From an uncultured Alphaproteobacteria bacterium (GTDB lineage: Bacteria > Pseudomonadota > Alphaproteobacteria > Methylaequorales > Methylaequoraceae), in the NCBI GenBank assembly GCA_964484795.1, contig CAZAFN010000002.1, positions 8,352 through 72,351 of the forward strand: a stretch of 64,000 bases of DNA, read 5' to 3'. This document shows, piece after piece, positions 24,171-64,000 of this stretch (positions are counted from its first letter, which is position 1; each line of letters opens with the position of its first letter). The notes under the pieces are model-generated. The model was not told where the DNA came from, searched no databases, and was given only the letters and a program-made list of their open reading frames with translations. The position numbers and the translations under genes were made by a program.

Positions 24171-25454
24171 TTATATTGCCGAGCCATAAATAGGAAATTT
24201 CTCGCACAATGATTTAACTTTAGACTTAACCTCTTGTTCGACCACACTATTATTCTCTGGATTATTAGAAAGACCATCCAAAACATCTCCAATCAAATTA
24301 CCTATCAATCTAAATTCATCAACACCGAAACCTCTACTCGTACCTGCAGGTGAACCAAGCCTAATGCCAGATGTAACAAACGGACTTTCTGGATCAAATG
24401 GAACACCGTTTTTATTGCAAGTTATTCCTGCATTCTCCAATGATTTTTCTGCTGCTTTACCTGTCAATTTTTTTGGTCTTAAATCTACTAAAACAAGGTG
24501 CGTATCTGTTCCACCAGAAACAACATCAAGCCCTCTTTCCAGTACAACTTCAGCAAGTGTTCTTGAATTATCAACCACAGATTTAATATAATCTTTGAAT
24601 TCTGGTTTAAGTGCTTCACCGAAAGCAACGGCTTTAGCACAAATGACGTGCATAAGCGGACCACCTTGAAGACCAGGAAAAACAGCGGAGTTTATCTTCT
24701 TAGCATAATCAGAATTATTTGTTAGAACTATCCCTCCCCTAGGCCCTCTAAGGGTTTTATGAGTAGTAGAAGTTACAACATCAGCAAAATCTAATGGGTT
24801 AGGATGATGGCCAGTAGCCACAAGACCTGCAAAATGAGCCATATCAACCAACAAAATTGCATCAGCTTTTTCAGCAATCTCTTTGAATCTCTTAAAATCA
24901 ATAACTCGTGGGTAGGCAGATCCACCAGCTATAATTAATTTAGGCTTATGTTCAATTGCAAGTTTTTCAACCTCATCATAATCAATTAATGCATCATCCT
25001 TCTTAACACCGTATTGAATTGCATTAAACCATTTTCCAGACTCATTTGGAGGTGCACCATGAGTTAAATGGCCTCCTGCTGCAAGAGACATTCCCATTAT
25101 TGTGTCTCCTGGCTTCAATAAAGCCAAGAAAACTGCCTGATTAGCTTGTGAACCAGAATGGACCTGTACATTTGCAAAATCAGCTTTAAAAAGTTTTTTT
25201 AATCTATCAATACATAAGTCTTCCACCACATCAACATGCTCGCATCCACCATAATACCTTTTACCGGAATAACCTTCAGCATATTTGTTTGTTAAGATTG
25301 TTCCTTGAGCCTCTAGAACTGCCTTTGATACAATGTTTTCAGATGCTATTAATTCTATCTGATCATTCTGCCTATTAAATTCATTTTCAATTGCATCTAA
25401 AATTGCTGGATCCGTTTGGGTTAAACTACTTTTAAAAAAAATCTGTGATGTCAT
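24171..25454 (-). CDS. glyA: serine hydroxymethyltransferase
   Basis: Full-length SHMT with PLP-Lys region ([12 protein letters not shown]). Confidence 0.95.
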
Positions 25455-34338: not shown

Positions 34339-35520
34339 ATGTCAAGAAAACACCCAGGTAGATTTCATATAGCCATTCCAGGCCCTACAAACATTCCAGA
34401 AAGAATTTTAAATGCAATGCATATTTCCTCTGAAGATCAAAGAAACCCAGAAATACCTGAATTAACAATACCACTTTACAAAGATGTGAAAAAAGTTTTT
34501 AAGTCGGAAAAAGGAACGGTTTTACTTTTTCCAGGTTCTGGAACAGGAGCATGGGAATCGGCAATAACAAACACATTGTCTCCTAATGAAAAAGTTTTAA
34601 TTTATCGTTTTGGACAATTTAGTCTTTTATGGACTGATATGTTCAAAAGACTAGGTCTAGATGTAGAGGTTGTTGATAGAGAATGGGGTACTGGAACTCC
34701 TCCTGAAGAAATTGAAAAAACATTAAAAGCTGATACTGATCACAAAATAAGAGTGGTTTGTGTTACTCAAAATGAAACTGCCACTGGTGTTTCATCTCAT
34801 GTTGATGATGTTAGAAAGGCTATGGATTCGGCAAATCATCCAGCTCTTCTTTTTGTTGATGGTGTTAGTTCTATTGCATCAATTGATTTTCGAATGGATG
34901 AATGGAAAGTAGATTGTGCAATTTCTGGTTCACAAAAAGGTTTTATGCTTCCATCGGGTATGGCCATTATGTGTGTTAGTGAAAAGGCATTAGAAGCTCA
35001 TAAAACAGCAAAATTAAAAAGATGCTATTATTCGTGGGAAGATCAAATTGCAACCAATAAAGATGGATATTTTCCATATACCCCTCAAATTCCAATGTTA
35101 AGAGCTCTTCAAGAATCTTGCAATATGTTATTTGAAGAGGGACTTGAAAATGTATTTAAACGTCACCACAGAATTGCAGAGGGAGTTAGGCAAGCAGTAC
35201 TGGAAGGGTGGAATCTTAAATTGTGTGCTAAAGAAAAATATTGGTATTCCGACACAGTTACGGCTGTGGTTGTACCTGAAGATAAGGATGCCAAAGAGGT
35301 ATTGTCAACAGCTTTTAGTAAATATCATCTTTCTTTAGGAGCAGGTTTAACCCAAGTGGCTGGAAAAGTTTTTAGAATTGGTCATCTGGGAGACTTAAAT
35401 GAACTTCAAACTTCGGCATTTATATCTGGTGCTGAGATGGCTATGATAGATTCTGGAATAAATGTTAAACCTGGAAGTGGTATGGCTGCTGCCTCAGAAT
35501 ATTGGAGAAAGAATTTATAA
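34339..35520 (+). CDS. serine-glyoxylate / alanine-glyoxylate aminotransferase (class V)
   Basis: Class-V aminotransferase pattern with PLP-Lys (SGSQKGFMLP). Confidence 0.75.
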   Translation: MSRKHPGRFHIAIPGPTNIPERILNAMHISSEDQRNPEIPELTIPLYKDVKKVFKSEKGTVLLFPGSGTGAWESAITNTLSPNEKVLIYRFGQFSLLWTDMFKRLGLDVEVVDREWGTGTPPEEIEKTLKADTDHKIRVVCVTQNETATGVSSHVDDVRKAMDSANHPALLFVDGVSSIASIDFRMDEWKVDCAISGSQKGFMLPSGMAIMCVSEKALEAHKTAKLKRCYYSWEDQIATNKDGYFPYTPQIPMLRALQESCNMLFEEGLENVFKRHHRIAEGVRQAVLEGWNLKLCAKEKYWYSDTVTAVVVPEDKDAKEVLSTAFSKYHLSLGAGLTQVAGKVFRIGHLGDLNELQTSAFISGAEMAMIDSGINVKPGSGMAAASEYWRKNL

Positions 35521-35526
35521 AGTCTT

Positions 35527-36498
35527 ATGAAAGATATAAAAGTATTAGTAACCAGAAAATGGCCTAAAAAAGTAGAAAGCAAATTATCACAAACTTTTGA
35601 TACAAAGTTGAATGTATCTGACACACCTTTAACTGAATCAGAATTAATTAAAGCAATGCAAGACTATGATGCTTTATTACCTACTGTAACTGATAAAATA
35701 AACGATAATATTATTAGTTGTGAAAATAGAAAAGTAAAAGTTATTGGTAATTTTGGTGTTGGGTTCAACAATATTGATATTGATTCTGCAAAAAAAAATG
35801 GGATTGTTGTAACTAATACTCCTGAAGTCTTAACTGATTGTACAGCTGACATTGCAATGTTATTGATGCTTGGAGTTGCCAGAAGAGCTGGAGAAGGAGA
35901 GCCTCATGTTAGAAATAGCGAATGGTCAGGTTGGAGACCTACTCATATGATGGGGACAAAAGTAACGGGAAAAGTTCTAGGCCTTGTTGGAATGGGAAGA
36001 ATTGCTCAAGCGATGGCACAAAAGTCCCATTTTGGATTTGGTATGAAAATCATTTACTTTGATCCATATTTTAAAGATGAAAAAATTAAAAATAAGTTTT
36101 CAGCTAAATCATGTGATTCAATTGATGCTTTGCTTTCAGAGGCCGATTTTGTCTCTCTTCACTGTCCATCAACATCGGAAACTCAAGGTTTAATTAATAA
36201 TGAAAAATTAAAAAAGATGAAAAATTCTGCATATTTAATCAACACTGCAAGAGGAGATATTGTAGTTGAAGATGATTTAATCTCTGCACTTAAAACTAAT
36301 TTGATTAAAGGTGCTGGTTTGGACGTTTACTTAAATGAACCAAATGTGCCTGAAACTCTAAGAAATTTATCAAATGTTTTTTTATTACCCCACCTTGGCA
36401 GTGCTACCGAGGAAACGAGAGAAGCAATGGGTATGAGAGTTTTTGAAAATGTTTCTTCATTTTTTAATAACAAAGAACCTAAAGACAGAGTAGTTTGA
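35527..36498 (+). CDS. D-2-hydroxyacid dehydrogenase (glycerate dehydrogenase / hydroxypyruvate reductase-like)
   Basis: NAD-binding GLVGMGRIAQAMA, catalytic His region (LPHLGSAT). Confidence 0.7.
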   Translation: MKDIKVLVTRKWPKKVESKLSQTFDTKLNVSDTPLTESELIKAMQDYDALLPTVTDKINDNIISCENRKVKVIGNFGVGFNNIDIDSAKKNGIVVTNTPEVLTDCTADIAMLLMLGVARRAGEGEPHVRNSEWSGWRPTHMMGTKVTGKVLGLVGMGRIAQAMAQKSHFGFGMKIIYFDPYFKDEKIKNKFSAKSCDSIDALLSEADFVSLHCPSTSETQGLINNEKLKKMKNSAYLINTARGDIVVEDDLISALKTNLIKGAGLDVYLNEPNVPETLRNLSNVFLLPHLGSATEETREAMGMRVFENVSSFFNNKEPKDRVV

Positions 36499-36502
36499 TC
36501 AA

Positions 36503-37864
36503 GTGAAAAACTCTAGAAGAGTTGACACAAAATTAGAGGATTTTACTAATCACTTAGTTGAACTTTTTGATTTTGGAGTTTCTCAAGTTAAACCACAAAA
36601 TATTCTAGGAAATTTTCTGTCATGTGACGACAGGAAAATTGTAGTTACAGAAAAAAAAAGAGAAATTATTTATCCAAACATAAATCAAGTATTTATTCTT
36701 TGTATCGGAAAAGCTTCTACTAATATGGCTAAGACTGCTAAAAAAATATTATCTAGTTCAAAATGTAAAATAAAAAATGGAGTAGTTGTTGTTAACAAGG
36801 AAAACTTCAAAAATGTAAATGGTTTCAAATGTTTTTCATCTGGTCATCCAATCCCAAATTCCAACGGTTTAAAAGCTTCAAAATTTATTAAAAAATATCT
36901 ACAAAATTCAACTAAAAAGGACCTAGTTTTAGTTTTCTTATCAGGAGGAGGATCTTCACTATTGCCATTTCCAGCTCCAGGCATAACACTCAAAGATAAA
37001 ATCAAGATGAACAAAATACTTTTAGAATCTGGAGCAAACATAAAAGAAATTAATACTGTAAGAAAACATCTTTCACTAATAAAAGGTGGAAACCTTGCAA
37101 AAATGTGTATGCCATCAAATGTACATTGTTTTGTTCTTTCAGATGTTGTAGGTGATGACTTAAGTTCAATAGCAAGTGGATTAACAACACCTGACAATTC
37201 AACTTTCTCAGACGCAGAAAAGATTATGAAGAAATACAAAATATGGAAAAAATCACCAAAACAGATTCAAAATCACATTCTGTTAGGTCTTAAAAATAAA
37301 AAATTAGAAACACCAAAGGAAAATAATTCTATTTTCTGGAAAGTCAAAAACACATTGATTGGTAGCAATAATATTTGCCTTCAGAACATACAAGAACATT
37401 CTAACAAAAATAATATTAAATCTAAAATTTGGAAAAAAAATATTGATGAAGATGTTATTGTTCTTTCAAAACAGTTCACTGAATATTTGACAAAACAAAA
37501 ACATAAAAAACCTTTCTTATTAATTTCTGGTGGTGAAACAACTGTTAAGATTAGGGGAAAGGGTAAAGGAGGTAGAAACCAAGAATTTGCACTTCAATTT
37601 TTAAAAGAAATTAAAAAGAAAAAGCCTTCTCTTAAATTTATACTTCTTTCTGCAGGAACAGATGGTCGAGATGGTCCAACAAATGCTGCGGGTGCAATGA
37701 TCAACCACAACTCTCTAAAAGAAATTAAAATAAAAAAAATAGATCTAACTAAAGAACTCAGAAACAATAACTCTTATGAGGTATTGAAAAAAATAAAATC
37801 ACTTGTAATAATAAAAGGAACGGATACAAATGTTGCTGATGTCCAACTATTGTTTCTTATTTAG
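36503..37864 (+). CDS. glycerate 2-kinase (MOFRL family), GTG start
   Basis: MOFRL-family pattern (…LLISGGETTVKIRGKGKGGRNQEFAL…). Confidence 0.7.
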   Translation: MKNSRRVDTKLEDFTNHLVELFDFGVSQVKPQNILGNFLSCDDRKIVVTEKKREIIYPNINQVFILCIGKASTNMAKTAKKILSSSKCKIKNGVVVVNKENFKNVNGFKCFSSGHPIPNSNGLKASKFIKKYLQNSTKKDLVLVFLSGGGSSLLPFPAPGITLKDKIKMNKILLESGANIKEINTVRKHLSLIKGGNLAKMCMPSNVHCFVLSDVVGDDLSSIASGLTTPDNSTFSDAEKIMKKYKIWKKSPKQIQNHILLGLKNKKLETPKENNSIFWKVKNTLIGSNNICLQNIQEHSNKNNIKSKIWKKNIDEDVIVLSKQFTEYLTKQKHKKPFLLISGGETTVKIRGKGKGGRNQEFALQFLKEIKKKKPSLKFILLSAGTDGRDGPTNAAGAMINHNSLKEIKIKKIDLTKELRNNNSYEVLKKIKSLVIIKGTDTNVADVQLLFLI

Positions 37865-47567: not shown

Positions 47568-49553
47568 ATGATAGCAAATTTATTTAGGATCAAGTTTTTT
47601 TTTTTACTTTGCTTTTTTGCCCCTTTGTCTCCAAATTCATTGGAATATCCCAGGCCCATAGCAAAACCAGAAATCAAGACAAGCGCATATAAGGATGTTT
47701 TTGATCAAATAAAAAAACAAAATTGGTCAATGGCTTTAGCTGTAGCAAGTGACTATCAAAATAGTACTTTAACTTCTTATATAAAGTGGTTAGACATTAC
47801 TCGACCTGGAAGCAACCATAAATTCGACTTTCTTGTGGATTTTTATCAAAACCATAAACACTGGCCAGAAAAAGAAAAAATCATCGAAAAGATAGAATCT
47901 TCTATCAATAAAAGTATTAATCCATTAGAAATAATTAATTGGTTTAAAGACAATCCACCAATGTCGAGTAAGGGAGAAATTGATTTTTTAGAGTCCAAGT
48001 TGAAGATTGGGGATAGTTCTCAAAAAACAAAGACAATAAAGGAAATCTGGGTTAATAAAAATCTAACTTTTAAACAACAAAAATATTTTACTAGAAAATA
48101 CAGCAAATATTGGTCACAAGAAGATAATTGGAATAGGTTTGAACGATTAATCTATGAAGGGAAAAACATCTCTGCAAGAAGAACTCTTAACAGAATTTAT
48201 GGTGATCTTAGAAAATTAGGAGAAGCAAGGCTAGGGCTTAGTCAAAGAAGCCCTAACGTATCTGAATTGATAAATAGAGTTCCTAATCATCTAAAAAATG
48301 ACGCAGGTTTAATTTATGAAAGAATGAGGTGGAGAAGAAAAGCAAAACTCGATACTGCAGTTGAACTTTTAGAATCACCTCCAAATGAAATCCAGAATGT
48401 CAGAAACTGGTGGATTAATTCTAGAATTGTAATAAGAAGACTTTTAAATGAAAAAAAATATTCAAAAGCATATAGAGTTTTAAAAAAGCATAATTTACCT
48501 TTAAGAGAATCATCTGGATTGGAAGCAGAATGGCTAGCAGGTTGGGTGGCATTATGTCACTTAAAAAAACCTACTATGAGCATAGTCCACTTTAAAAATG
48601 TTTTTGAAAATAGTAGTGATCAAAACATCAAATCCAAAGCTGCATATTGGTTGGCATTGGCATATGAAAAAAATGATCAAAATGAAAAATTAATTAGAAA
48701 ATGGCTATTAGAGTCTGCTAAAAATAAATTTACATTTTATGGACAGAATGCAGCCATAAGAATTGGTAGTTTCAATTTTGATGAAAATAATTCTGCTTTA
48801 AAAAAACCTTTTGGGTTTGATGATCTGTTTGAAGTAATAAAAATCATAAAAATGTCTAATCAGAATTTAGACAAAACTTTTCCTTTTTTTTCACAATTGA
48901 TAGATTTATCAAAATCGATTGATGAGAAACAATTTGTCTTAAACATTGCCAATAATGTAAACAGCCACCACCTAACATTAAGGTTGTCCAGAAAACTAGA
49001 AGTCCCATCTCTAAAGTATTCCTACCCACTAATTGAAGATTATATTCCTGAACAATTTAAAAACTCGTCAGCAACTTTAGCTTTGATTCATGCCATCACA
49101 CACCAAGAGAGTAATTTTAAAATTAATGCCTATAGCTCAGCTGGAGCCAGGGGGTTAATGCAATTAATGCCTTATACAGCAAAGAGGGTGGCAAGAGATT
49201 TGCGAATTAGATACTACAAGTCCGCATTAACTAAAAACCCGCAATATAATGTTACACTCGGTACTACCTATATTAATAAAATGCTAATAAAATTTGACCA
49301 ATCTTTACCTCTTGCTCTTGCGGCATATAATGCAGGACCAAATAGAGTGAAAATTTGGTTGAAAAGATATGGTGACCCAAGAAGTGATCAAATAGATTAT
49401 TTAGATTGGATTGAGTCAATTCCTATTTCAGAAACAAGATTTTATGTAAAAAAAGTACTATCAAACCTCAGAATATATCAAAAAAAATACGGACTAAAGC
49501 TTTATGAGGTTAAAAACATTAGATTTGGCAATAAATTTGCAATGCCATATTGA
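47568..49553 (+). CDS. soluble lytic murein transglycosylase (Slt-family)
   Basis: Signal peptide, long superhelical region, C-terminal SLT domain (ESNFKINAYSSAGARGLMQLMPYTA). Confidence 0.8.
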   Translation: MIANLFRIKFFFLLCFFAPLSPNSLEYPRPIAKPEIKTSAYKDVFDQIKKQNWSMALAVASDYQNSTLTSYIKWLDITRPGSNHKFDFLVDFYQNHKHWPEKEKIIEKIESSINKSINPLEIINWFKDNPPMSSKGEIDFLESKLKIGDSSQKTKTIKEIWVNKNLTFKQQKYFTRKYSKYWSQEDNWNRFERLIYEGKNISARRTLNRIYGDLRKLGEARLGLSQRSPNVSELINRVPNHLKNDAGLIYERMRWRRKAKLDTAVELLESPPNEIQNVRNWWINSRIVIRRLLNEKKYSKAYRVLKKHNLPLRESSGLEAEWLAGWVALCHLKKPTMSIVHFKNVFENSSDQNIKSKAAYWLALAYEKNDQNEKLIRKWLLESAKNKFTFYGQNAAIRIGSFNFDENNSALKKPFGFDDLFEVIKIIKMSNQNLDKTFPFFSQLIDLSKSIDEKQFVLNIANNVNSHHLTLRLSRKLEVPSLKYSYPLIEDYIPEQFKNSSATLALIHAITHQESNFKINAYSSAGARGLMQLMPYTAKRVARDLRIRYYKSALTKNPQYNVTLGTTYINKMLIKFDQSLPLALAAYNAGPNRVKIWLKRYGDPRSDQIDYLDWIESIPISETRFYVKKVLSNLRIYQKKYGLKLYEVKNIRFGNKFAMPY

Positions 49554-53900: not shown

Positions 53901-54338
53901 TTACTGATCGTAATCTCTCAACATTTTTTTTATTTCGATACCATGTATTTCCTCAGTTTTAATCATCTCTCTAGCATATTCTTCAATATAAACACTTTCA
54001 TTTTCAGAATAAGATAAAAGCTCTTTATATAAAGATATTGCTTTTTCTTCATGAGAAAGACTTTCTACTAAAAGGTCCTTAACCGAATGTTTGTTTGTCT
54101 CTTCAATCTCAGGAATCGCTTGCGAAGGATGACCACCCAATCCTGTCAACAATTCACCAGCTTGTTGTGCATGCTCAAGTGATTCAGATGCCTGCGCTTT
54201 AAAAAATTTGTCCAAAAACAATCTATTGGGCCCCGTAACCATCAAAGCAAAATGAGTGTATTTCACTACACCCGCCAATTCATATTTGAGTATATCATTC
54301 AGTATTGATACAGCCTTATCTACATTTAAACCCGTCAT
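53901..54338 (-). CDS. ferritin-like / bacterioferritin-family protein (putative)
   Basis: Four-helix-bundle pattern with Glu/His ligand spacing (…ELAGVVKY…ESLEHAQQ…EEKAISLY…EEIHGIE). Confidence 0.45.
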   Translation of the reverse strand: MTGLNVDKAVSILNDILKYELAGVVKYTHFALMVTGPNRLFLDKFFKAQASESLEHAQQAGELLTGLGGHPSQAIPEIEETNKHSVKDLLVESLSHEEKAISLYKELLSYSENESVYIEEYAREMIKTEEIHGIEIKKMLRDYDQ

Positions 54339-54437: not shown

Positions 54438-54453
54438 TGGCACAGTGTTTGCA
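54438..54453 (+). promoter_or_regulatory. sigma-54 (RpoN) -24/-12 promoter upstream of flgG
   Basis: TGGCACagtgtTTGCA is an exact match to TGGCAC-N5-TTGCW. The -12 element ends 38 nt before the flgG ATG, which has an AGAGGA RBS. Confidence 0.6.
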
Positions 54454-54491
54454 GAAAAAACATTAAACCTAGCTAAGAAAGAGGATTAAAA

Positions 54492-55280
54492 ATGAGTACT
54501 AATGCAATGCACGTTGCTAAAACCGGATTAAATGCGCAACAAGTTCGAATGCAAATAATTTCAAACAATCTTGCAAACGTTAACACAAATGGATTTAAGA
54601 GAGATCGAGCAAATTTTGAATCATTACTTTATCAAATAATAAGAAGTAGTGGTGCCCAAACTTCAGTAGACACCGAATTAACTTCAGGTTTTTCTGTAGG
54701 TACAGGTGTGAATGTAGTTAACTCAAATAAACTTCATTCTCAAGGAAGTATAGTTTCAACCGATAATTCTCTAGACTTAGCAATTGACGGTGGAGGTTTT
54801 TTCCAAGTTTTACTTCCTGATGGTCAGATTGTGTATACAAGAAATGGAGCTTTTGCCAGAAATAACGAAGGAATATTGACAACTAACAGTGGTTTTATAA
54901 TTCAACCAGAAACTGCAATACCTGCAGAAGCAACTAAAATTAATGTTTCAGCAGACGGCATAGTTTCCGTTCAAGTTCCTGAACAGGTTGAAGCACAGGA
55001 AATTGGACAGCTTCAATTGGCAGACTTTCAAAATAGGACCGGTCTTCAACCAATTGGAGAAAACTTTTATGTAGAAACCACGGCAAGTGGGGCTCCAGTA
55101 TTAGAAAACCCTTTTGCAGCCGGGTTTGGTAAAATAGTCCAAGGTGCTTTAGAGAGTTCTAACGTAAATGTTGTTCAAGAATTAGTAGATATGATTGAAA
55201 CTCAAAGAGCTTACGAGGTTAATTCCAAGGCAATAACTTCCGTGGATGAAATGTTAAGATTTGTTAGCAACAACTTGTAG
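54492..55280 (+). CDS. flgG: flagellar basal-body distal rod protein FlgG
   Basis: MHVAKTGLNAQQVRMQIISNNLANVNTNGFKRDRANFESLLYQ is near-consensus; C-terminal rod motif (IETQRAYEVNSKAI). Confidence 0.9.
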   Translation: MSTNAMHVAKTGLNAQQVRMQIISNNLANVNTNGFKRDRANFESLLYQIIRSSGAQTSVDTELTSGFSVGTGVNVVNSNKLHSQGSIVSTDNSLDLAIDGGGFFQVLLPDGQIVYTRNGAFARNNEGILTTNSGFIIQPETAIPAEATKINVSADGIVSVQVPEQVEAQEIGQLQLADFQNRTGLQPIGENFYVETTASGAPVLENPFAAGFGKIVQGALESSNVNVVQELVDMIETQRAYEVNSKAITSVDEMLRFVSNNL

Positions 55281-55288
55281 GGTTTAAA

Positions 55289-55981
55289 ATGAGATTTTTA
55301 CTTTTATCAATGATCCTACTTTTGAGTAGTTGTTCACACTATATGGAGAATAAAATTGGCGAAGAATTTAAAAGTATTCAACCTGATTTTACCAATATAG
55401 AAACGACTCAAACATCTACAGAAGGTGCTGTTTACGAAGGTAGCGGTGGGCTGTTTGCATCAGACAGAAGAGCAAACAATATTGGTGACATAATCACCAT
55501 TACTTTAGAAGAATCTTTGACTGCAGCAAACTCTGGCTCTGAAACAACAACAAAATCAGATGCTTATACATTTGATCTTCCGGAAGCACTTTTTGGCCCA
55601 TCTTCCTTAATTGGAAAGTTGTTTTTTCCTGGAGGTGTCAAAGAAGACAACTTGCGAGCTGGAACTACTCAAGCATTTACTGGAAGTGGAACCGCAGCTC
55701 AAGCCAACAGTTTGGCTGGCACGATATCCGTCACGGTTGTCAGAGTATATCCTAATGGAAATTTGGAAGTTAAAGGGGAAAGAAAACTATCTTATAATAG
55801 TGGGACTGAGTACATTAGATTGGCAGGCGTAATTAGACCTGAAGACATTTCTTCCAGCAATACTGTATCATCAACAAAAGTAGCAGACGCACAAATATCT
55901 TACACTGGAGTTGGGGATATGAATGACAGTGTAACCAAAGGATGGTTGAGCAGATATTTTGCTTATGTATCACCTTTTTAG
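55289..55981 (+). CDS. flgH: flagellar L-ring lipoprotein FlgH
   Basis: Lipobox LLSSCS; FlgH core (…[12 protein letters not shown]…[19 protein letters not shown]…). Confidence 0.8.
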
Positions 55982-55988
55982 GTCAACT

Positions 55989-57116
55989 ATGAAAAAAAAA
56001 CACATCTATTTCTTATTTTTACTTATTTTTTGTTTTACAAGTTCTGTTGCTTATTCTGACAGAATTAAAGACATGGCTTCTCTTGCAGGAGTTAGGTCCA
56101 ATCAGCTTGTTGGCTACGGCTTGGTCATAGGCTTATCTAAGACTGGTGACGGAAGTGTTAATCTTACCAAACAAAGTATTGCTGCAATGGTTTCTCAGTT
56201 TGGCGTCATTGCCAGCACTGCAGACATAGATGCAACCAATTCAGCAAATGTTATGGTTACTGCAAACTTACCACCGTTTGCAAAACCTGGACAAACCATA
56301 GACATAACTGTTTCAACCATCGGCAAGGCTAAGTCCTTAAAGGGTGGAACATTGTTGATGACTGCTTTAAAAGGTGCAGATGGAGATGTTTATGCAATTG
56401 CTCAAGGAAATCTAGTTGTAGGTGGCCTAGGAGTTGAAGGTGCTGATGGCTCAAGTACAATTCAAGGCACTCCTACTGTCGGAAGAATTCCAGGAGGAGC
56501 AACGGTTGAAAAAATAGTTGAAAACACTTTCTTAGAAAAAGATAATGTTGTCTTAAACCTTCACCAATCAGATTTTTCACAAGCAGATAAGATAGCTGAA
56601 ACCATAAATGACACATTTGGACCAGAAGTTGCCATACCATTGGATTCAACATCCATAAAGGTGAGAACTCCAGCAGACCCATCTCAAAAAGTTTCATTTA
56701 TTGGATTGTTAGAAAACATAAATTTTGAACCAGTTAGTCCAAAGGCTAAAGTTGTCATTAACTCAAGAACTGGCACCGTAGTAATAGGAGGTGACGTAAG
56801 AATTTCACCTGCTGCAGTTGCTCATGGAAGTTTGTCAGTAAAAATTCAAGAGGATACAAAACTTCTATCAGAAGGAACAGGAACCGTTGTTGGAACATCT
56901 GCAACGGTAGCAGGAACAACTGCCACAACTACGGCAGATACTCAAATTTCAGTTGACGAACAACCAGCAAGAGCATTTGTTTTTGACCCTGGAATTGAAT
57001 TACAAACACTTGTGGATGCTTTAAATGAAACTGGAACCACTGCAACAGATATGGTTGCCATTCTTGAAGCGCTAAGAGAGGCTGGCTCCTTAAGGGCAGA
57101 GTTAATCATTATCTAA
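55989..57116 (+). CDS. flgI: flagellar P-ring protein FlgI
   Basis: Signal peptide then [26 protein letters not shown], the FlgI mature N-terminus. Start chosen at MKKKHIYF…; the track ORF starts 30 nt earlier. Confidence 0.9.
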
Positions 57117-57127
57117 AAGGTTGAAAG

Positions 57128-57439
57128 ATGAAAAACAATTCAATTAGCAATATGAAAATGAATCTAGAAGATCATATTTCAACCATCAACACAAAAAAGA
57201 TTGGTCAAAAAAATTCGCTAGAAGAGGTCGCTCAAGAGTTTGAATCCTTATTTGTTTTTCAAATGCTTAAAAGCGCAAGAAAAGCAAAGCTAGCTGAAGG
57301 CATATTAACCAACGAAGCTTTTGATACTTATCAATCAATCCTAGATCAAGAATACGCCAAGACGATTGCAAAAAATCAAAGCTTTGGAATAGCAGAAGCA
57401 CTAATAAGACAGTTTGGCAAATATGAGGATGTTAAGTAG
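57128..57439 (+). CDS. flagellar rod-binding protein (FlgJ N-terminal-domain-like)
   Basis: Rod-binding domain pattern (AQEFESLFVFQMLKSARKA…); the stop overlaps the flgK GTG start (TAGTG). Confidence 0.6.
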   Translation: MKNNSISNMKMNLEDHISTINTKKIGQKNSLEEVAQEFESLFVFQMLKSARKAKLAEGILTNEAFDTYQSILDQEYAKTIAKNQSFGIAEALIRQFGKYEDVK

Positions 57440-60400
57440 TGCCAAGTTTATTTGACATAGGAAAAAGTGGTCTTCAATCTTACAGGCAATCTTTAGCTGT
57501 AACTGGTCAGAACATTGCAAACATAAATACTGATGGATACAAAAAAAGAGAAGCGGCTCTTGAAGAAGTATCTGGTGGTGGTGGTGGTGTAACGGAAATT
57601 TCTGATCAAACGGGGTTAGGAGTTAGAGTTGGTGAAATTAGACGTGCATTTGATCAATTCTTGGTTGATAAGGCTAGACAGACATCTTCCATATATAAAA
57701 AGGCCGACACATATCTTGATGAAGTTAAAGATTTAGAAAACCTTTTATTACCTAGTGACTCAAACTTAAGCACTTCAATCGGAGATTTTTTTAATTCATT
57801 ACAAGAAATTGCAGCTGCTCCAGATGATCAAGCTCCAAGAATAATCGCCGTTGAAAAAGGGAAGGATCTTGCTGGTCAATTCAATCTATATTCAGATAGA
57901 ATTGAAAGTTTGAAAAAAAAAATAGTTGATAAATCAAAAAACTCGGTAACCTCAATTAATCTTCTGTCAACACAAATTAACAGTATAAATGGAAAATTGT
58001 TGGCATCAAGTTCAGGTAGTGGTGCAAATGCGCTCCTTGATCAAAGGGACATTCTAATAGATCAACTTTCAGAAGTTTCTCAGATAACTGTTTCTTACGG
58101 AAGCAAAGGTGAAGCTGAGATTAGACTTGGTAACACAGGTTCAGGACCAATAATTGTTGAAGCAGATTCATCATCTTCAAAAGGAAACAATTCTACTACT
58201 AATGTTGATGTTATTATTCAAGGTTCAAGATTGCAAACTGTTGTGGGGATAACTAAAACTGCCACCAATCAAGTGCAAGCTGGAATTCTAGCTGGTTTAG
58301 TCGATTCATATGCTTTGGCAAATGACACAATGAATGAGGTTGACGCCCTGGCAGTGATGATCTCCAAAAAATTCAATGAAATCAATATGTCAGGAATTAA
58401 TCTAGATGGAAAAAATGGAAAACAAATGTTCTCTGTTTCAAGTCTTGAGGCCGTAGAAAACCCAACTAATAGATCAAGTGTAGGTGTGGCCCTTTTTGTA
58501 ACTGATCCAGAAAAAATCCAAGAAAGTGCGTATAACGTTATCTTTCATGAAAAAACCGGTGAATGGAATTTAACTTCAGAAAAAATCAAAACTGCAATAA
58601 CAGGAACTGAAACAATTGAAGCTCCAGGATTCAGAATTTCATTTTTTGGTCAACCACTCGATGGAGATGAATTTAACATCACTCCTACTAGTGCATCCAA
58701 AGGAATGAATTTTCTTCTAGAGAGACCTCAAGATTTTGCTGCCGCCTCTACTTCCATGATTAGCTCAAGTTCAACCAACTTAGGGTCAGCAAAACTAGAT
58801 GAAATTTCACCAATTAAAGAAAAAGATAAAACTACATTGTTGAATTTGAATTCTGTTTTTTCAAATGGTCTTAGTCCAGTCACAGCAGGAGAGTTTACGT
58901 CTGATGGAGGAGCAGCCATCATTCCAACAGGAACTTCATTTGTAAACTTAAGTTCATACAAATCTCAACCACAGATAAAATTTGGCTTATCAGCATCTGA
59001 CATCCCAAAACTTACAAGTTTTACGGTCACATTGTCTGATTCAAGTACTGTGACAGTAGATTTAACCGGAGTAACTTCAATCCAGGAAGCTGCAGATGTA
59101 CTTAACAGGAGTAGAGACGTTCAAGGAAATTCTCACAATTTTAGATCAAAAGGGCTTTTTGCTTCAGGAGGTGGATCAACTTTGACTGTAGCAAGCAATA
59201 ACCTTACTTTTTCTTCTGGATCTTTAACCGCTGGAACTGCTATTAATGGTGTTGCAAACAATCCATCAATAACAGCAGCAAGCCAAGTTCAAATTTTCAC
59301 TAGAGAAGGAAGACATTTAGCTGGCACGGTTCTTACAACATCTGAAATAGCAAAATATTTGTCAGAGGAAAATGGTTTCTCAAAACATGCTGAATATAGA
59401 GCTGACTATCTCAATGGAACCGGAAGCGAAAATTATAGAGACATTGACATCTCAAGATCAACAATATCCGGAAACCACACTATAAGTTACGGTGCCAATG
59501 GTACGGCAGCGAGTGCACAAAGAGCCGCATCAACCGTTCCTTCAAGCCATGTTTCTTCAGCTTTTACATTGACCTTAAATTCAACAACCACGGGAAAGTC
59601 TGAAAACATTAGCGTCCCTGTAGAATCTTCATCTGGTTATGTTGCAGGATTGATAAATGCCAATACAAAAAGTCTAGGTTTAGAAGCATCAGCAAACACA
59701 AGAGTTAAAATCCCTGCACCAGCTTTTGATGGAACAATATCTTTTACACTTAAAAGCAAACAAGGGGTTGATAATAGTGCAGCAATTAGTGCTTCGATAT
59801 TAACGAATGATTTGACAAACCTTGCGACTACAATAAATAACTATTCCGGAAGAACAGGTGTTATTTCTCACTTGTCCAGTGACAAAAAACATATAATTCT
59901 TGAAAATAGTAATGGAGACGACATTCAAATAAGTTCTTTCTCAAGTTCCAACACGGCAAACAATCTAACAATCAACACTACAAGTTTGGGTTCCAGTGCC
60001 TCAGCAACCATATCAAAAAATGGACATGGACTTGAAACTGGTGACAAGGTTATTTACACCGCTGGTGGAACTCAATTAGGCAACCTTACAAATGGTGGAA
60101 CATATTATGTAATAAAGGTAAATGACAACAGTTTCAAGGTTGCGTCATCAAGCAGCAATGCTTATGGAGGGACGGCAATTACCGTTGGTGGTAGTGGTGG
60201 AAACGCAAATGACAAATTTACAATACCAATGAGTCTGGAAATTCTTAAGAATGACTTCAATGGGTTTTCCAGTGCTCAATCAATTGATTTAGATGGCAAC
60301 AGCTATAAAGCTGGAAGATTTAGTGGAGAACTGCATATTGAATCATCTTCAGCATTTACTACATCTAATGATGGTGGATCCACAACAGTCTCAAGTTCAC

Positions 60401-62847
60401 AAAATTCTCTAAAAGATGGATTTATGAGTGTAACCTCATCTTCTACGGGAGAAACAAAAACAGTTAGTCCACTTGTTTTGGATGCTGACTTCTCATCTGG
60501 ACATCCAGACGGAGTTAATTCTGCAAGTTCCGTATTAAGTTATGGGCTAACATTAGCTGCAAGCGGAACGGGAAGTGCTTTTACTACAACCGTAGATGTT
60601 TCAAAAAACGATAAATTAAGTACGGCAGAGGTATCCAAGAAAATTGCCGAAGGATTGAGAGCTAATAGCCCTTCAACTGAAATGACAGGCACTTCGGTTG
60701 CATCAATTCCTGCAGATGGTTCAAGTTTTAAAGTAGATCATGATGGCTTAACCTACACCTTAACAATGGAAAATGGTGAAGTAATTGTTTCAGGTGGAGA
60801 AAAGGATCTTTTAACGGCTTATTTTGATGACCCAGACGCAATCACAGTTAACACCACATCACTCAATGGAGCCACAACGATAACTTCTAATGAACACGAT
60901 CTCGAAACTGGAGATGCCATTGTTTACAATGCTGCCGAAAAAGTTAATGTTGATACCACTAATTTTACTTCAGTAACCACCATAACTGCAAAAAACCATG
61001 GTTTTGCTACTCAGGACCCCATAATTTATAAAGCTGGGGGATCTATGCCAATTTCAGGTTTAACGGATGGAACCACTTATTACGCAATTAGAGTTAATGA
61101 TGATAGTTTTAAATTAGCAACCTCTTCAGTAAACGCTGGTTCTGGTACGGCTATAACAATAGCAGGAGGAATAGGTGGGAGTGTTTCTGACAAATTTTCC
61201 AGTCCACGAGCAGGCTTGTTAGACGGAGAAACTTATTATGTCGTAAAAACTGATGATCACAATTTTAGGTTGGCTCAAACATATACTCTTGCAACAAATG
61301 CTAGTCCTTCCGTAATTACAATTGGAACTGGAAACGTTGGTGGTAACAGTGCAGACACATTTGACCCTGGAAAAAGATTATACATTTCCGCTGGAAAAAC
61401 CATATCTGGATCTCAGTTTTCATTTCCAACGGACAGCTCAAACGACACCAATTCATTAGACTTTGGAATGGATAAAACCAACGTAGAAACATCTATCACA
61501 GGTAGTGAAATCACTACTCCAACATATACAAAAGGCGGCTCTCCAACGGTCACACAGACTCATTTTCACTTTACATTTGGGCGCGAACAGCCATATTGTG
61601 TAGCTTATACGGACAATACAAAAACTGTAAACACAACGTCAGCAGTTTCTTCAAGTGAAATAACCTCTAGTTCTCACGGTTTCAAAACGGGAGACAAGAT
61701 TGAATATAATAAGGCAGGAACCGTATTGAATGGTCTTACAGATAACACCTCATATTTTGCCGTTGTCACTGGTCCAAACACCTTCAAACTTGCAAGCACT
61801 TGGGCAAATGCAACAGCAGAAACTCCGACCACAATGTCAATTGGAGGAAGTGGTGGAAATGCAGGTGATACATTTACAAGCATAGTTGCAGGCATTTATA
61901 ATGATGATTTTCCAGGTGGAACGGCATTAACAAATCTTGGAATTTCTATGGAGTTGACTCAATCAAGTGACACTAAAGCACAATTATCATTTGTTAAGGA
62001 AGCCGACAAAAATCAGATTGTCATAAGCAATGCTAAATATGATTATTTGGCTACAACTAGTGATAGAGAAGCTGAAAATTTTGGCTTTAAAACAAATCAA
62101 ATGAACGTAAATGTAATAAATGATGATATAAAAATTCAGTCATTTACGTCAGATTCTCGAGGGGCAAAGGCAGTTGATCTAGAAATTCCTTCTAATAGTA
62201 TTAAATCTTTAGTTGGAAACAATTTGTCAATCAAAAATTTACCCCCTGAGGACTTGATAATGATCATGACCGGCAACGGAACAAGAAAAATTGGTTCAAG
62301 TTATGGGGAAGTTCTTCCACCCCCTCCTCCATCTGAATATAAGGTAGTAGTTGACTCAACTAACAACAAAAAAATTGAGATTTTTGATGCATCAACCAAT
62401 CATTCAATTGCGTCAAGATTGATTCCTGACAATGGAATAATCTCTGCAGTGGACAAATCTCTAAGATTTACTGGAGAAACATCCACAAAAGACATTTTCA
62501 ACATTACAAATAATACTGAGGGAATTGGAGACAACAGAAACATTTTAAAAATGATTGACTTGCAAGAGTCAGATGTGAATGGTTTAAATTCTGGAAGTTT
62601 CCAGGATATTTTTAATCAAACTGTTGCAGAAATTGGTTCGACGGTGAGAAGTGGGCAATTAACCCTTCAAGATGCCGAATCAACAAAAAATGAAGCAAAG
62701 GCAGCTGAAGATGAAATGGCTGGTGTATCATTAGATGAAGAAGCATCGTCTCTAATTCAATTTCAACAAGCTTTCTCAGCAAATGCTAGAATCATTCAAA
62801 CTGCTCGAGAGCTATTCCAGTCATTGATGATGGTTGTTTCCAAATAG
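57439..62847 (+). CDS. flgK: giant flagellar hook-associated protein 1 (FlgK), 1802 aa
   Basis: FlgK N-terminal domain (LFDIGKSGLQSYRQSLAVTGQNIANINTDGYKKREA) and C-terminal helices (VSLDEEASSLIQFQQAFSANARIIQTARELFQSL). They flank a central insert of about 1400 aa that is Ser/Thr/Gly/Asn-rich and contains internal repeats. Confidence 0.8.
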   Translation: MPSLFDIGKSGLQSYRQSLAVTGQNIANINTDGYKKREAALEEVSGGGGGVTEISDQTGLGVRVGEIRRAFDQFLVDKARQTSSIYKKADTYLDEVKDLENLLLPSDSNLSTSIGDFFNSLQEIAAAPDDQAPRIIAVEKGKDLAGQFNLYSDRIESLKKKIVDKSKNSVTSINLLSTQINSINGKLLASSSGSGANALLDQRDILIDQLSEVSQITVSYGSKGEAEIRLGNTGSGPIIVEADSSSSKGNNSTTNVDVIIQGSRLQTVVGITKTATNQVQAGILAGLVDSYALANDTMNEVDALAVMISKKFNEINMSGINLDGKNGKQMFSVSSLEAVENPTNRSSVGVALFVTDPEKIQESAYNVIFHEKTGEWNLTSEKIKTAITGTETIEAPGFRISFFGQPLDGDEFNITPTSASKGMNFLLERPQDFAAASTSMISSSSTNLGSAKLDEISPIKEKDKTTLLNLNSVFSNGLSPVTAGEFTSDGGAAIIPTGTSFVNLSSYKSQPQIKFGLSASDIPKLTSFTVTLSDSSTVTVDLTGVTSIQEAADVLNRSRDVQGNSHNFRSKGLFASGGGSTLTVASNNLTFSSGSLTAGTAINGVANNPSITAASQVQIFTREGRHLAGTVLTTSEIAKYLSEENGFSKHAEYRADYLNGTGSENYRDIDISRSTISGNHTISYGANGTAASAQRAASTVPSSHVSSAFTLTLNSTTTGKSENISVPVESSSGYVAGLINANTKSLGLEASANTRVKIPAPAFDGTISFTLKSKQGVDNSAAISASILTNDLTNLATTINNYSGRTGVISHLSSDKKHIILENSNGDDIQISSFSSSNTANNLTINTTSLGSSASATISKNGHGLETGDKVIYTAGGTQLGNLTNGGTYYVIKVNDNSFKVASSSSNAYGGTAITVGGSGGNANDKFTIPMSLEILKNDFNGFSSAQSIDLDGNSYKAGRFSGELHIESSSAFTTSNDGGSTTVSSSQNSLKDGFMSVTSSSTGETKTVSPLVLDADFSSGHPDGVNSASSVLSYGLTLAASGTGSAFTTTVDVSKNDKLSTAEVSKKIAEGLRANSPSTEMTGTSVASIPADGSSFKVDHDGLTYTLTMENGEVIVSGGEKDLLTAYFDDPDAITVNTTSLNGATTITSNEHDLETGDAIVYNAAEKVNVDTTNFTSVTTITAKNHGFATQDPIIYKAGGSMPISGLTDGTTYYAIRVNDDSFKLATSSVNAGSGTAITIAGGIGGSVSDKFSSPRAGLLDGETYYVVKTDDHNFRLAQTYTLATNASPSVITIGTGNVGGNSADTFDPGKRLYISAGKTISGSQFSFPTDSSNDTNSLDFGMDKTNVETSITGSEITTPTYTKGGSPTVTQTHFHFTFGREQPYCVAYTDNTKTVNTTSAVSSSEITSSSHGFKTGDKIEYNKAGTVLNGLTDNTSYFAVVTGPNTFKLASTWANATAETPTTMSIGGSGGNAGDTFTSIVAGIYNDDFPGGTALTNLGISMELTQSSDTKAQLSFVKEADKNQIVISNAKYDYLATTSDREAENFGFKTNQMNVNVINDDIKIQSFTSDSRGAKAVDLEIPSNSIKSLVGNNLSIKNLPPEDLIMIMTGNGTRKIGSSYGEVLPPPPPSEYKVVVDSTNNKKIEIFDASTNHSIASRLIPDNGIISAVDKSLRFTGETSTKDIFNITNNTEGIGDNRNILKMIDLQESDVNGLNSGSFQDIFNQTVAEIGSTVRSGQLTLQDAESTKNEAKAAEDEMAGVSLDEEASSLIQFQQAFSANARIIQTARELFQSLMMVVSK
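60022..61880 (+). repeat. Degenerate ~65-aa intragenic protein repeats in the FlgK central insert (at least 3.5 copies)
   Basis: Copies at nt 60022-60228, 60995-61206, 61214-61367 (partial), 61672-61880, plus a partial copy at about 60892. They share [GS]HG[LF]xTGDxIxY…GLTDGTTYY.I.V.D.SFKLA.S…GTAIT..GG.GGN..D.F. Identity is at the amino-acid level only (about 40%). Confidence 0.5.
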
Positions 62848-62855
62848 GAGAATGC

Positions 62856-63785
62856 ATGAAAAAAACATTTAATCAGGAAATTAATTTAAAAATAACTTCT
62901 AAAAATCCTAACAAGAACGTTCTCTTCAATAAATCAGATGAATTCATCAATGAAATTATAAATGCTATAAACAAAAAACATCCAGATAGTTTTGAATTTG
63001 AAACCACCCAAAAGGTTGGGATAGATTTCTTCACCAAAAAGATGGAAAAGAATGAAAACTTTTCCTTTGTAAAATATGGTGATGGAGAATTACTTTGTAT
63101 GATCGGTCGTAAAGGAAAAAATAGTATAGATGACCACCCATATTCAGAAAAATTAGGAAAACTTCTTGAAGAATCATTTGTTAATTTATTCAGATTTCAC
63201 GATGATGTTTACTTAGCGGATTGGACTGACAATTTAACAAATACCAGAGATAGTTATATTTCCATCAATGGCTTAAACCCAAAATTTGCCGAATACGAAT
63301 GTTTTTTGACTCTCGAAGAAAACATAAAAAACAATAAACTGCTAAATTTTTATAAACTTCTTAAAAGGTCCAAAAGAAAAAAAATTTTTATTGGCCCAAA
63401 AAAACTTGCAAAAGTTCAAGAAATGCTAAATGTTGACAAATTCATAGACGTACCGATTGTTGATGCTTTCTCGGAATACGATAGAATCAAATCTCAACTA
63501 TTTGACTATGGAATAAATGACGATAACGTTTACATTTTATGTTGTTCCATGATGTCTTGCGTGATTTGCAGTGATTTAAAAGAAATGAATTCAAAAATCA
63601 CTTTACTTGATGTTGGGAGTGGTTTTGATCCTATATTTAGTCAAAAAACAAGACCAAAACAACCCACCAGCGCAAATTGTTTTAACTATTTCAGAGAAGT
63701 ACTCCCTGATGGATACGTCTTCAGTAAAACTAGCGATGCAGTGAACAGTATAAACAATAGGAAAATGCATGAAAAAAACATTTAA
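62856..63785 (+). CDS. GT-D (DUF1792)-like putative glycosyltransferase, copy 1; 3' end reads into the duplicated segment
   Basis: …FVKYGDGELLCMIG… resembles the N-terminal [RK]xGDGE motif of GT-D-fold glycosyltransferases. Begins 8 nt after the flgK stop. The last ~10 codons (…NNRKMHEKNI) are encoded by the repeated upstream/start region of copy 2. Confidence 0.35.
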   Translation: MKKTFNQEINLKITSKNPNKNVLFNKSDEFINEIINAINKKHPDSFEFETTQKVGIDFFTKKMEKNENFSFVKYGDGELLCMIGRKGKNSIDDHPYSEKLGKLLEESFVNLFRFHDDVYLADWTDNLTNTRDSYISINGLNPKFAEYECFLTLEENIKNNKLLNFYKLLKRSKRKKIFIGPKKLAKVQEMLNVDKFIDVPIVDAFSEYDRIKSQLFDYGINDDNVYILCCSMMSCVICSDLKEMNSKITLLDVGSGFDPIFSQKTRPKQPTSANCFNYFREVLPDGYVFSKTSDAVNSINNRKMHEKNI

Positions 63786-64000
63786 TCACGAAATTAATTT
63801 AAAAATAACTTCTAAAAATCCTAACAAGAACGTTCTCTTCAATAAATCAGATGAATTCATCAATGAAATTATAAATGCTATAAACAAAAAACATCCAGAT
63901 AGTTTTGAATTTGAAACCACCCAAAAGGTTGGGATAGATTTCTTCACCAAAAAGATGGAAAAGAATGAAAACTTTTCCTTTGTAAAATATGGTGATGGAG
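63769..64000 (+). CDS. GT-D (DUF1792)-like putative glycosyltransferase, copy 2 (3' end outside the window)
   Basis: All 232 nt visible are identical to 62856-63087 apart from one substitution (Q7H). Confidence 0.35.
   Translation, partial: MKKTFNHEINLKITSKNPNKNVLFNKSDEFINEIINAINKKHPDSFEFETTQKVGIDFFTKKMEKNENFSFVKYGDG

Follow-up and report, generated by a model that had tools for sequence, protein, structure and literature searches.

The locus described here lies at the 3′ end of a 64 kb stretch (64,000 nucleotides, referred to as the window) of the genome of an uncultured alphaproteobacterium. It consists, on the plus strand, of a sigma-54 (RpoN) type −24/−12 promoter, the flagellar genes flgG, flgH, flgI, flgJ and flgK, and one complete and one truncated gene for a glycosyltransferase of the GT-D fold. 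The locus represents an ordinary late operon of flagellar genes, conserved in the order TMED127, and belongs to a known kind of system. It is probably the start of a native late-stage flagellar cluster of this order, in which a single sigma-54 polycistron is followed by filament genes under tiered control.

The first gene, flgG (54492–55280, plus strand), encodes a distal rod protein of 262 amino acids (aa; TIGR02488, 362 bits against a cut-off of 253; PF00460, PF22692 and PF06429). Its product is 89–95% identical across the TMED127 loci. The L-ring lipoprotein gene flgH (55289–55981, plus strand; 230 aa) was assigned by PF02107 (E = 6.4e-54), and a lipobox was read from the translation at its N-terminus. 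The P-ring protein gene flgI (55989–57116, plus strand; 375 aa) was assigned by PF02119 (E = 2.6e-122) and NF003676 (404 bits against a cut-off of 300); an N-terminal signal peptide is present. The open reading frame (ORF) of flgI opens at TTG 55959, which the first-pass annotation had taken as the start, whereas gene callers use ATG 55989 and report the 375-aa form on most contigs. The fourth gene, flgJ (57128–57439, plus strand; 103 aa; PF10135, E = 6.4e-13), is of the single-domain form. It comprises the rod-binding/scaffold domain without the muramidase domain, covering positions 20–90 of the 294-position two-domain model TIGR02541, and a short flgJ occupies the same place in all related loci. 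The fifth gene, flgK (57439–62847, plus strand), starts with GTG and encodes a giant hook-associated protein 1 (HAP1) of 1,802 aa (TIGR02492, 267 bits against a cut-off of 171; PF22638, E = 1e-44; PF00460 and PF06429).

The complete glycosyltransferase gene (copy 1; 62856–63785, plus strand; 309 aa) carries a DXE motif, D76-G77-E78, and was assigned by profile search and Foldseek. A tandem copy 2 (63768–64000, plus strand) is clipped by the window end to its first 233 bases; the full gene encodes 306 aa and lies at 10914–11834 of L011, the contig that matches the window. The two copies are near-identical and copy 2 starts (63768) inside the 3′ end of copy 1, an overlap as expected from unequal crossing-over. 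From flgG to the glycosyltransferase gene, the genes are separated by 7–11 nt or overlap, base 57439 being common to the flgJ stop and the flgK start codon. Terminator-like sites are no commoner than in shuffled sequences. As all five flagellar gene calls pass curated thresholds, the translationally coupled flgG-H-I-J-K-glycosyltransferase run of the first-pass annotation stands.

The promoter at 54438–54453 reads TGGCAC-N5-TTGCA (TGGCACAGTGTTTGCA). It agrees with the sigma-54 consensus at 16 of 16 positions, and its GG (−24) and GC (−12) elements are spaced by exactly 10 nt. It lies in the 153-nt gap between flgG and a divergent ferritin-like gene (53901–54338, minus strand) and ends 38 nt before the flgG ATG (54492). 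A Shine–Dalgarno sequence, AGAGGA (54480–54485, plus strand), was read 6 nt 5′ of this ATG, and the block AGAAAGAGG is kept in most related loci. With standard spacing, transcription would start at about 54464–54466, giving a predicted leader of about 27 nt.

TGGCACAGTGTTTGCA is the sole perfect match to TGGCAY-N5-TTGCW in the window. In shuffled sequences 0.13 matches were expected, and at least one was found in 12 of 100 shuffles. The count of one match is weak evidence because 12% of the shuffles reach it, and the match might have arisen by chance in AT-rich DNA, with the operon driven from a sigma-70 promoter; that a near-match upstream of hsp20 (49526) turned out to be unconserved agrees with such an explanation. 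Related loci were collected by a FlgI scan using one genome per GTDB species, which gave 33 loci. The motif TGGCA[CT]-N5-[TA]TGCA was found 34–43 nt 5′ of the flgG start in all 33, at the equivalent position despite diverged flanks. For 32 distinct sequences anchored on the motif, the information content was 1.92 bits per position, computed over eleven specified motif positions, compared with 0.55–0.57 bits in the flanks. The motif is a clear phylogenetic footprint in DNA that has otherwise diverged. Moreover, sister motifs are kept before flgL and the large flagellin gene, and sigma-70-like matches do not exceed their frequency in shuffles. A chance match is therefore highly improbable. Position and conservation are the decisive evidence for the flgG promoter motif, and the consensus-perfect promoter of the first-pass annotation is borne out. 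The operon itself is presumably RpoN-dependent.

The near-match upstream of the HSP20 gene, TGGCAATAAATTTGCA (49526–49541, one mismatch), was considered as a second sigma-54 site and treated as chance because its −12 element is lost in the orthologue in L016. A TGACA-rich block neighbouring TGGCAATAAATTTGCA is conserved in the same orthologue.

In L011, copy 2 is followed by flgL (TIGR02550, 229 bits; cut-off 127), then by a minus-strand ORF of 169 aa, three flagellin genes (264, 264 and 514 aa), fliD, a minus-strand ORF of 249 aa, fliS and a TPR gene. In the related locus L048, a further flagellin gene, two more fliS genes, a CLC channel gene and unrelated genes come after the TPR gene. The flgL, three flagellin, fliD and fliS genes all lie within 7 kb past the window end. 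The first-pass annotation had remarked that no flgF, flgE or fliC was in view. This is correct for flgF and flgE, neither of which was found, but for fliC it is an effect of the window edge. The abrupt start of the cluster next to unrelated genes, remarked on at the same time, is true of every TMED127 locus: each begins at flgG, beside unrelated genes that vary with the genus.

The filament genes carry promoter-like motifs of two kinds. AGGCAY-N5-TTGCT precedes the flgL ATG in 26 of the 26 loci that hold flgL, whether flgK or a glycosyltransferase gene lies upstream. This motif (L011 11840–11855) ends 11–12 nt before the ATG (21–22 nt in four loci), so that a transcript beginning at the standard distance would have only some 2 nt ahead of the ATG, and a near-leaderless mRNA is predicted. 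A Shine–Dalgarno sequence is nonetheless present between the motif and the ATG. TGGCAY-N5-TTGCA was found 36–49 nt before the gene for the large (about 500 aa) flagellin in 13 loci; in L011 (15495–15546) a hairpin and T-run followed by TGGCAT-N5-TTGCA precede the 514-aa flagellin gene. A sigma-28-like motif, CTAAAC-N-GTCGTTWA, lies before the small flagellin gene (eight loci) and before fliS, and in L011 a 264-aa flagellin gene and fliS share CTAAACAATTTT-N3-ATAAGTCGTT (13740–13770 and 19604–19632). The flagellins thus appear to be differently controlled, the 514-aa protein by a promoter of the sigma-54 type and the 264-aa protein by a sigma-28-like one. Sigma-54 and sigma-28-like motifs on the filament genes therefore point to a tiered hierarchy of sigma-54 followed by sigma-28, as in R. 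sphaeroides Fla1, Vibrio, Pseudomonas and Campylobacter.

The 169-aa ORF (L011 13148–13657, minus strand) is conserved across TMED127 loci, and a 251-aa ORF takes the place of the 249-aa ORF (L011 18854–19603, minus strand) in L048; neither the 169-aa nor the 249-aa ORF gave a Pfam or NCBIfam match. The C-terminal part of the TPR-repeat protein encoded beside fliS (L011 20019–20930, minus strand; P0162 is its homologue in L048) weakly matches heptosyltransferases (GT9), and PF01075 is found on some homologues of the protein. Its architecture recalls TPR-glycosyltransferase flagellin modifiers such as Caulobacter FlmG. On the other side of the cluster, many TMED127 genera have a conserved ORF of about 106 aa directly 5′ of the flgG promoter (L012 8106–8426, L026 8109–8426, L036 2135–2455 and others). 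The window is without this ORF, and its ferritin–flgG gap is only 153 nt long. In the genus GCA-2691245 a 601-aa sulfotransferase-domain gene lies just 5′ of flgG (L015 6024–7840; also L013 7617, L030 6095 and L044 6033). It bears a TGGCAT-N5-TTGC[AT] motif of its own and may be part of the same regulon.

The first-pass annotation described the host as a streamlined marine alphaproteobacterium of about 30% GC (guanine plus cytosine), which was corroborated, and as being of the SAR11 type, which was not. The 32 closest species genomes with the locus (FlgI 85–93% identical) are single-amplified and metagenome-assembled genomes (MAGs) that belong to the GTDB order TMED127, not to Pelagibacterales (PMC12542740). 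They include MED657, MED652, MED715, SAT45, SP101, TMED13, AG-343-F10, AG-907-I19, AG-911-L17, AG-901-J22 and AG-349-G10; the single-amplified genome AG-901-J22 is 92% complete. The labels of related genomes vary: 'uncultured Alphaproteobacteria', 'Rickettsiales bacterium' (MED657, MED652, MED715, SAT45 and SP101) and 'Pelagibacteraceae bacterium' (TMED13). Related genomes are listed under order TMED127, family TMED127, by Glass et al. (2025; PMC12542740), with the genera GCA-2691245, GCA-2691145, GCA-2710765, TMED13, MED-G10, GCA-002690875 and GCA-2711625. TMED127 is described there as a deep-branching group with genomes of about 1.5 Mb, probably obligate XoxF/serine-cycle methylotrophs of subtropical surface water. 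The comparison with sister genomes that the first-pass annotation had proposed shows the same flgGHIJK(L) arrangement in at least seven TMED127 genera and 32 species. By exact protein matches, the locus was also traced to numerous marine metagenome contigs, the longest of 253 kb.

The surroundings of the locus agree with this placement. The flanking ABC-permease-mop-SBF-ferritin genes are syntenic with TMED13, MED715, MED657 and others, and in L016 the synteny extends to dapA-SLT-hsp20-FTR1. On the same contigs, secE-nusG-rplKAJ lies about 65 kb upstream of the locus, and genes for the ribosomal proteins L13, S9 and L32 are found within the window. The window contains glyA (24171–25454), a phosphofructokinase gene and, at 34339–37864, an Aminotran_5/2-hydroxyacid dehydrogenase/DUF4147-MOFRL trio resembling serine-glyoxylate aminotransferase, hydroxypyruvate reductase and glycerate kinase. 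Together, glyA and this trio agree with reports of serine-cycle methylotrophy in TMED127. Genes for TonB-dependent receptors and phosphofructokinase are atypical of SAR11, as is a serine-cycle-like set. Two TonB-dependent receptor genes and a TonB gene were seen (window 1035–3329; L050 13433–15460, just upstream of the window), and these receptors may be connected with the uptake of lanthanides or metals that has been described in TMED127. An Rfam search of the window returned two tRNAs only and no rRNA.

To judge from orthologues and gene order, the host is a member of TMED127 ('Methylaequorales') and not of SAR11. HIMB59/AEGEAN-169 and low-GC SAR116 were also considered as hosts and were dropped once genome names matched TMED127. 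A SAR11-type genome with an unexpected, perhaps recently acquired, sigma-54 flagellar or flagellum-derived apparatus would account for the gene-dense marine sequence of about 30% GC, for the abrupt start of the cluster beside unrelated genes and for the 'Pelagibacteraceae bacterium' label that submitters gave to some related MAGs (TMED13, REMEI136 and TMED195). We consider this very unlikely, as GTDB places the related genomes in the separate order TMED127, the gene order recurs throughout the genera and species counted above, third-position GC is native, the flanks are syntenic housekeeping genes, and the TonB receptors, phosphofructokinase and serine-cycle-like genes fit TMED127 methylotrophs. 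The flagellar locus had been called unexpected in the first-pass annotation; that surprise rested on SAR11 and falls with it. The same annotation had allowed that the locus would be ordinary core genome if a flagellated AT-rich lineage carried the same arrangement. The arrangement is indeed lineage-wide, although flagellation of this lineage is unmentioned in the literature found.

The size of FlgK, about three times the usual, was not remarked upon in the first-pass annotation. The N- and C-terminal FlgK segments and the D1 helical domain are conserved and identify the protein as FlgK. Residues 441–1640 (58759–62358, plus strand) form an insert of about 1,200 aa with 27% Ser+Thr, predicted to be a chain of beta-rich domains. 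The AlphaFold model of these residues had a mean predicted local distance difference test score (pLDDT) of 80.4 and a predicted template-modelling (TM) score of 0.75. In Foldseek it matched the D2/D3 domains of Pseudomonas aeruginosa FliC (8erm) with E = 1e-5 and a TM-score on the target of 0.69. The remaining significant structural matches were to Helicobacter pylori and Campylobacter jejuni flagellins, with none outside flagellin outer domains. The model thus suggests that the insert is made up of flagellin D2/D3-like outer domains. A self-BLASTP of FlgK for internal repeats listed no off-diagonal matches; a G-x-YY[AV][IV] motif occurs in three copies, as found by pattern search only.

Wherever a TMED127 locus contains flgK in full, the protein is intact, at 1,689–1,802 aa; it measures 1,541 aa in a more distant UBA4588 MAG. 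A database search returned further giant FlgKs of 1,411–2,030 aa that are 35–43% identical, and those that bear a source name are labelled PS1 clade/Rhodobiaceae, Paracoccaceae or TMED87; the Paracoccaceae proteins are 38% identical over half of the protein. The insert can be aligned across the distant giant FlgKs, with invariant residues, and PF07196 is present in homologues. The FlgK of the Rhodobacter (Cereibacter) sphaeroides Fla1 system has 1,363 aa, including an 860-aa central region with flagellin-IN motifs, and builds a bulky hook-associated region; swimming is impaired when parts of the central region are deleted (PMC7277832). The TMED127 protein belongs to this kind but is larger, at 1.7–1.8 thousand residues order-wide, and extends the bulky-HAP phenomenon of R. 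sphaeroides to several marine alphaproteobacterial clades.

The 'flgG operon' of R. sphaeroides Fla1 is the closest described system as a whole. Both have sigma-54-dependent flagellar genes and sigma-28 late genes (the control here being read from motifs alone), a FlgJ with only the rod-scaffold domain, and a very large FlgK (1,363 aa there and 1,802 aa here) whose ends are conserved and whose long central region is of the flagellin-IN type. They differ in that the R. sphaeroides operon contains an sltF-like lytic transglycosylase gene and the operon in the window has none, in that one or two GT-D genes lie between flgK and flgL here, and in that the cluster here is split from flgBCDEF and fli/flh. 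None of FleQ/FleT, rpoN2, the H-ring genes flgT/flgP or motF was seen in the approximately 95 kb that could be read around the locus. The host genomes also differ, at about 1.5 Mb and 30% GC here and about 4.5 Mb and 69% GC in R. sphaeroides.

The composition of the flagellar genes bears on their origin. The flg region has 37–39% GC compared with about 30% elsewhere in the window, but GC at third codon positions (GC3) is 0.22–0.26 in the flg genes and 0.17–0.27 in the other genes of the window. The excess sits in codon positions 1 and 2, which reflects Gly/Ala/Ser/Thr-rich proteins. Recent horizontal transfer was rejected on the grounds that third-position GC is unchanged. With native GC3 and presence in at least seven genera, the cluster is native core genome.

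An ancient transfer of a Fla1-type, gammaproteobacteria-like system before TMED127 diversified, with amelioration since, is a different matter. Fla1 of R. sphaeroides is considered to be gamma-derived (PMC7277832), and the locus resembles it in the contiguous flgG-H-I-J-K-L order, in the sigma-54 and sigma-28-like control, in the single-domain FlgJ and in the giant FlgK with flagellin-IN-type domains. The giant FlgKs of Paracoccaceae, the PS1 clade and TMED87, with their alignable inserts and 35–43% identity, point the same way. So does a PS1 locus that keeps this order and likewise neighbours a CLC channel gene, although PS1 sharing is equally explicable by vertical descent within the Alphaproteobacteria. 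The composition bears no trace of transfer, and no flgT, flgP or motF was seen in the sequence around the locus. An ancient transfer is on balance possible, though we doubt it, and prefer a cluster native to TMED127.

In the PS1 locus (Parvibaculales/'Rhodobiaceae'; L049 1–21409) the order is flgG-H-I-J-K-L-flagellins-fliD-fliS and then the CLC channel, with a giant FlgK of 1,432 aa whose insert can be aligned with that of TMED127. PS1 differs in having flgF, together with an ORF of 1,096 aa or more, directly 5′ of flgG, in being without a GT-D gene and in having flagellins of about 700 aa. The shared order hints at an old locus common to marine alphaproteobacterial orders. The long PS1 ORF that precedes flgF possibly encodes a giant hook protein.

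Polar flagella offer a further comparison. In Vibrio and Pseudomonas, and in Campylobacter and Helicobacter, sigma-54 promoters drive rod, ring and hook-associated genes; one flagellin gene is under sigma-54 control (flaA in V. cholerae; flaB in C. jejuni and H. pylori) and the others are under sigma-28. The arrangement here is similar, with a sigma-54 motif on the gene for the 514-aa flagellin and a sigma-28-like motif on that for the 264-aa flagellin. It differs in its alphaproteobacterial host, in an operon that opens at flgG rather than flgB and in a sigma-28-like −10 element that reads GTCGTTWA and not GCCGATAA.

The last genes of the operon were assigned to the GT-D fold by structure rather than by family models. 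The curated cut-offs are not reached (PF22882, 21.9 bits against 27; NF040628, 21.7 against 75); PF08759 has precomputed matches on some homologues. A profile search against solved structures found 4PFX/4PHR (DUF1792) with E = 5.2e-7 and the GDGE residues aligned. The model of copy 1 had a pLDDT of 91.3, and in Foldseek only 4pfx, 4phr and 5v4a were significant (E = 2e-8 to 2e-7, probability 1.00; the next match had E = 0.1), at TM-scores of only 0.47–0.56. In an alignment of 26 homologues D76-G77-E78 is invariant within a K-x-G-D-G-E block, and a second block, L-D-x-G-S-G-x-D, is likewise invariant. The predicted model thus confirmed a GT-D fold with a DXE motif, as the first-pass annotation had proposed for the last gene.

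The known GT-D enzymes, dGT1/GalT1 of Streptococcus parasanguinis (4PFX, 4PHR) and the S. sanguinis protein (5V4A), share the fold and the aligned metal-binding DXE motif. Their substrates are serine-rich surface proteins, which the Ser+Thr content of the FlgK insert recalls. The protein of the window is only 15–19% identical to them (TM-score about 0.5), adds an N-terminal helix region of about 55 aa and is encoded in a Gram-negative flagellar operon. To our knowledge, the GT-D fold has so far been known only from glycosylation of serine-rich adhesins in Gram-positive bacteria, and a literature search found no paper linking DUF1792 to flagella. Flagellar O-glycosylation is suggested because the gene lies inside the operon, beside that for a Ser/Thr-rich surface protein and just 5′ of the flagellin genes. 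Most likely the enzymes O-glycosylate a Ser/Thr-rich, surface-exposed flagellar protein, either flagellin or the FlgK insert. Copy number varies within the population of the window: L001, L003 and L006 have two tandem copies, as the window does, and L002 and L004 have one. The presence of the gene in a flagellar operon offers a testable lead towards a new enzyme of flagellar glycosylation.

Taken together, these results lead to the following proposal for how the cluster works. Sigma-54 RNA polymerase would bind the −24/−12 element at 54438–54453, assisted by an ATP-dependent enhancer-binding activator that was not seen here, and a single polycistronic, translationally coupled mRNA would span flgG through one or two GT-D genes. 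Its flagellar products are FlgG of the distal rod, FlgH of the outer-membrane L ring, FlgI of the periplasmic P ring, FlgJ as scaffold of the rod cap and FlgK as the first protein of the hook–filament junction. FlgL and the large flagellin would be expressed from their own sigma-54-like motifs, and the small flagellin and FliS from sigma-28-like motifs. FlgK would build a bulky junction with flagellin-like outer domains, and the GT-D enzymes would O-glycosylate flagellin or the FlgK insert.

Several observations weigh against this proposal. Neither rpoN nor an enhancer-binding activator was seen in the 95 kb around the locus, and fliA/flgM, flgBCDEF, the fli/flh export genes and motAB were not seen there either. 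Upstream, the 54 kb of the window before flgG contain nothing flagellar, nor do the 10 kb before the window, which carry secE-nusG-rplKAJ. Downstream of fliS, the TPR gene and, in L048, the extra flagellin and fliS genes and the unrelated genes that follow include no regulators, export genes or motor genes. No SLT-type lytic enzyme gene lies between flgG and flgL, unlike the sltF of R. sphaeroides; a Slt70-like gene is situated at 47568–49553, about 5 kb upstream of the operon. The GT-D genes were found only in MED-G10, GCA-002690875, GCA-2711625 and the lineage of the window itself, and are accessory, since most TMED127 genera are without them; the choice of their substrate is a guess. Flagella and motility in TMED127 are not mentioned in the literature found, including the main text and supplements of PMC12542740.

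The small genome of about 1.5 Mb, the absence of motor, stator and chemotaxis genes from about 95 kb of contiguous sequence, and a bulky junction protein with possibly glycosylated flagellar proteins would also suit a flagellum-derived structure that does not swim, such as a secretion or attachment organelle of the sort found in some reduced genomes. Such a structure is unlikely in view of the full conserved filament set (FlgL, three or four flagellins, FliD and one to three FliS proteins) and of FlgG, whose identity across genera exceeds that of neighbouring housekeeping genes. Normal swimming of R. sphaeroides depends on the large FlgK insert. That a genome of about 1.5 Mb devotes more than 20 kb to conserved flagellar genes suggests that TMED127 cells swim. 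The full picture, in which the abundant, streamlined methanol oxidizers of TMED127 in the surface ocean are motile by a sigma-54/sigma-28 flagellum with a FlgK junction of about 1,800 aa and, in some genera, GT-D glycosylation, is offered only tentatively. If it is true, TMED127 would be among the free-living swimmers with the smallest genomes and the GT-D enzymes would be a new class of flagellar glycosyltransferase.

What interest remains in an otherwise ordinary locus lies in unmentioned flagella in an ecologically prominent clade, in the exceptionally large FlgK and in a GT-D gene within the operon. According to a recent study, TMED127 ('Clade X') has the highest transcriptional activity of the lanthanide-dependent methylotrophs in oligotrophic surface water, yet its 'mode of life requires further investigation' (PMC11996626). 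Swimming would bear on how these cells find patchy or diel sources of methanol, and would run counter to the generalization that streamlined oligotrophs are non-motile.

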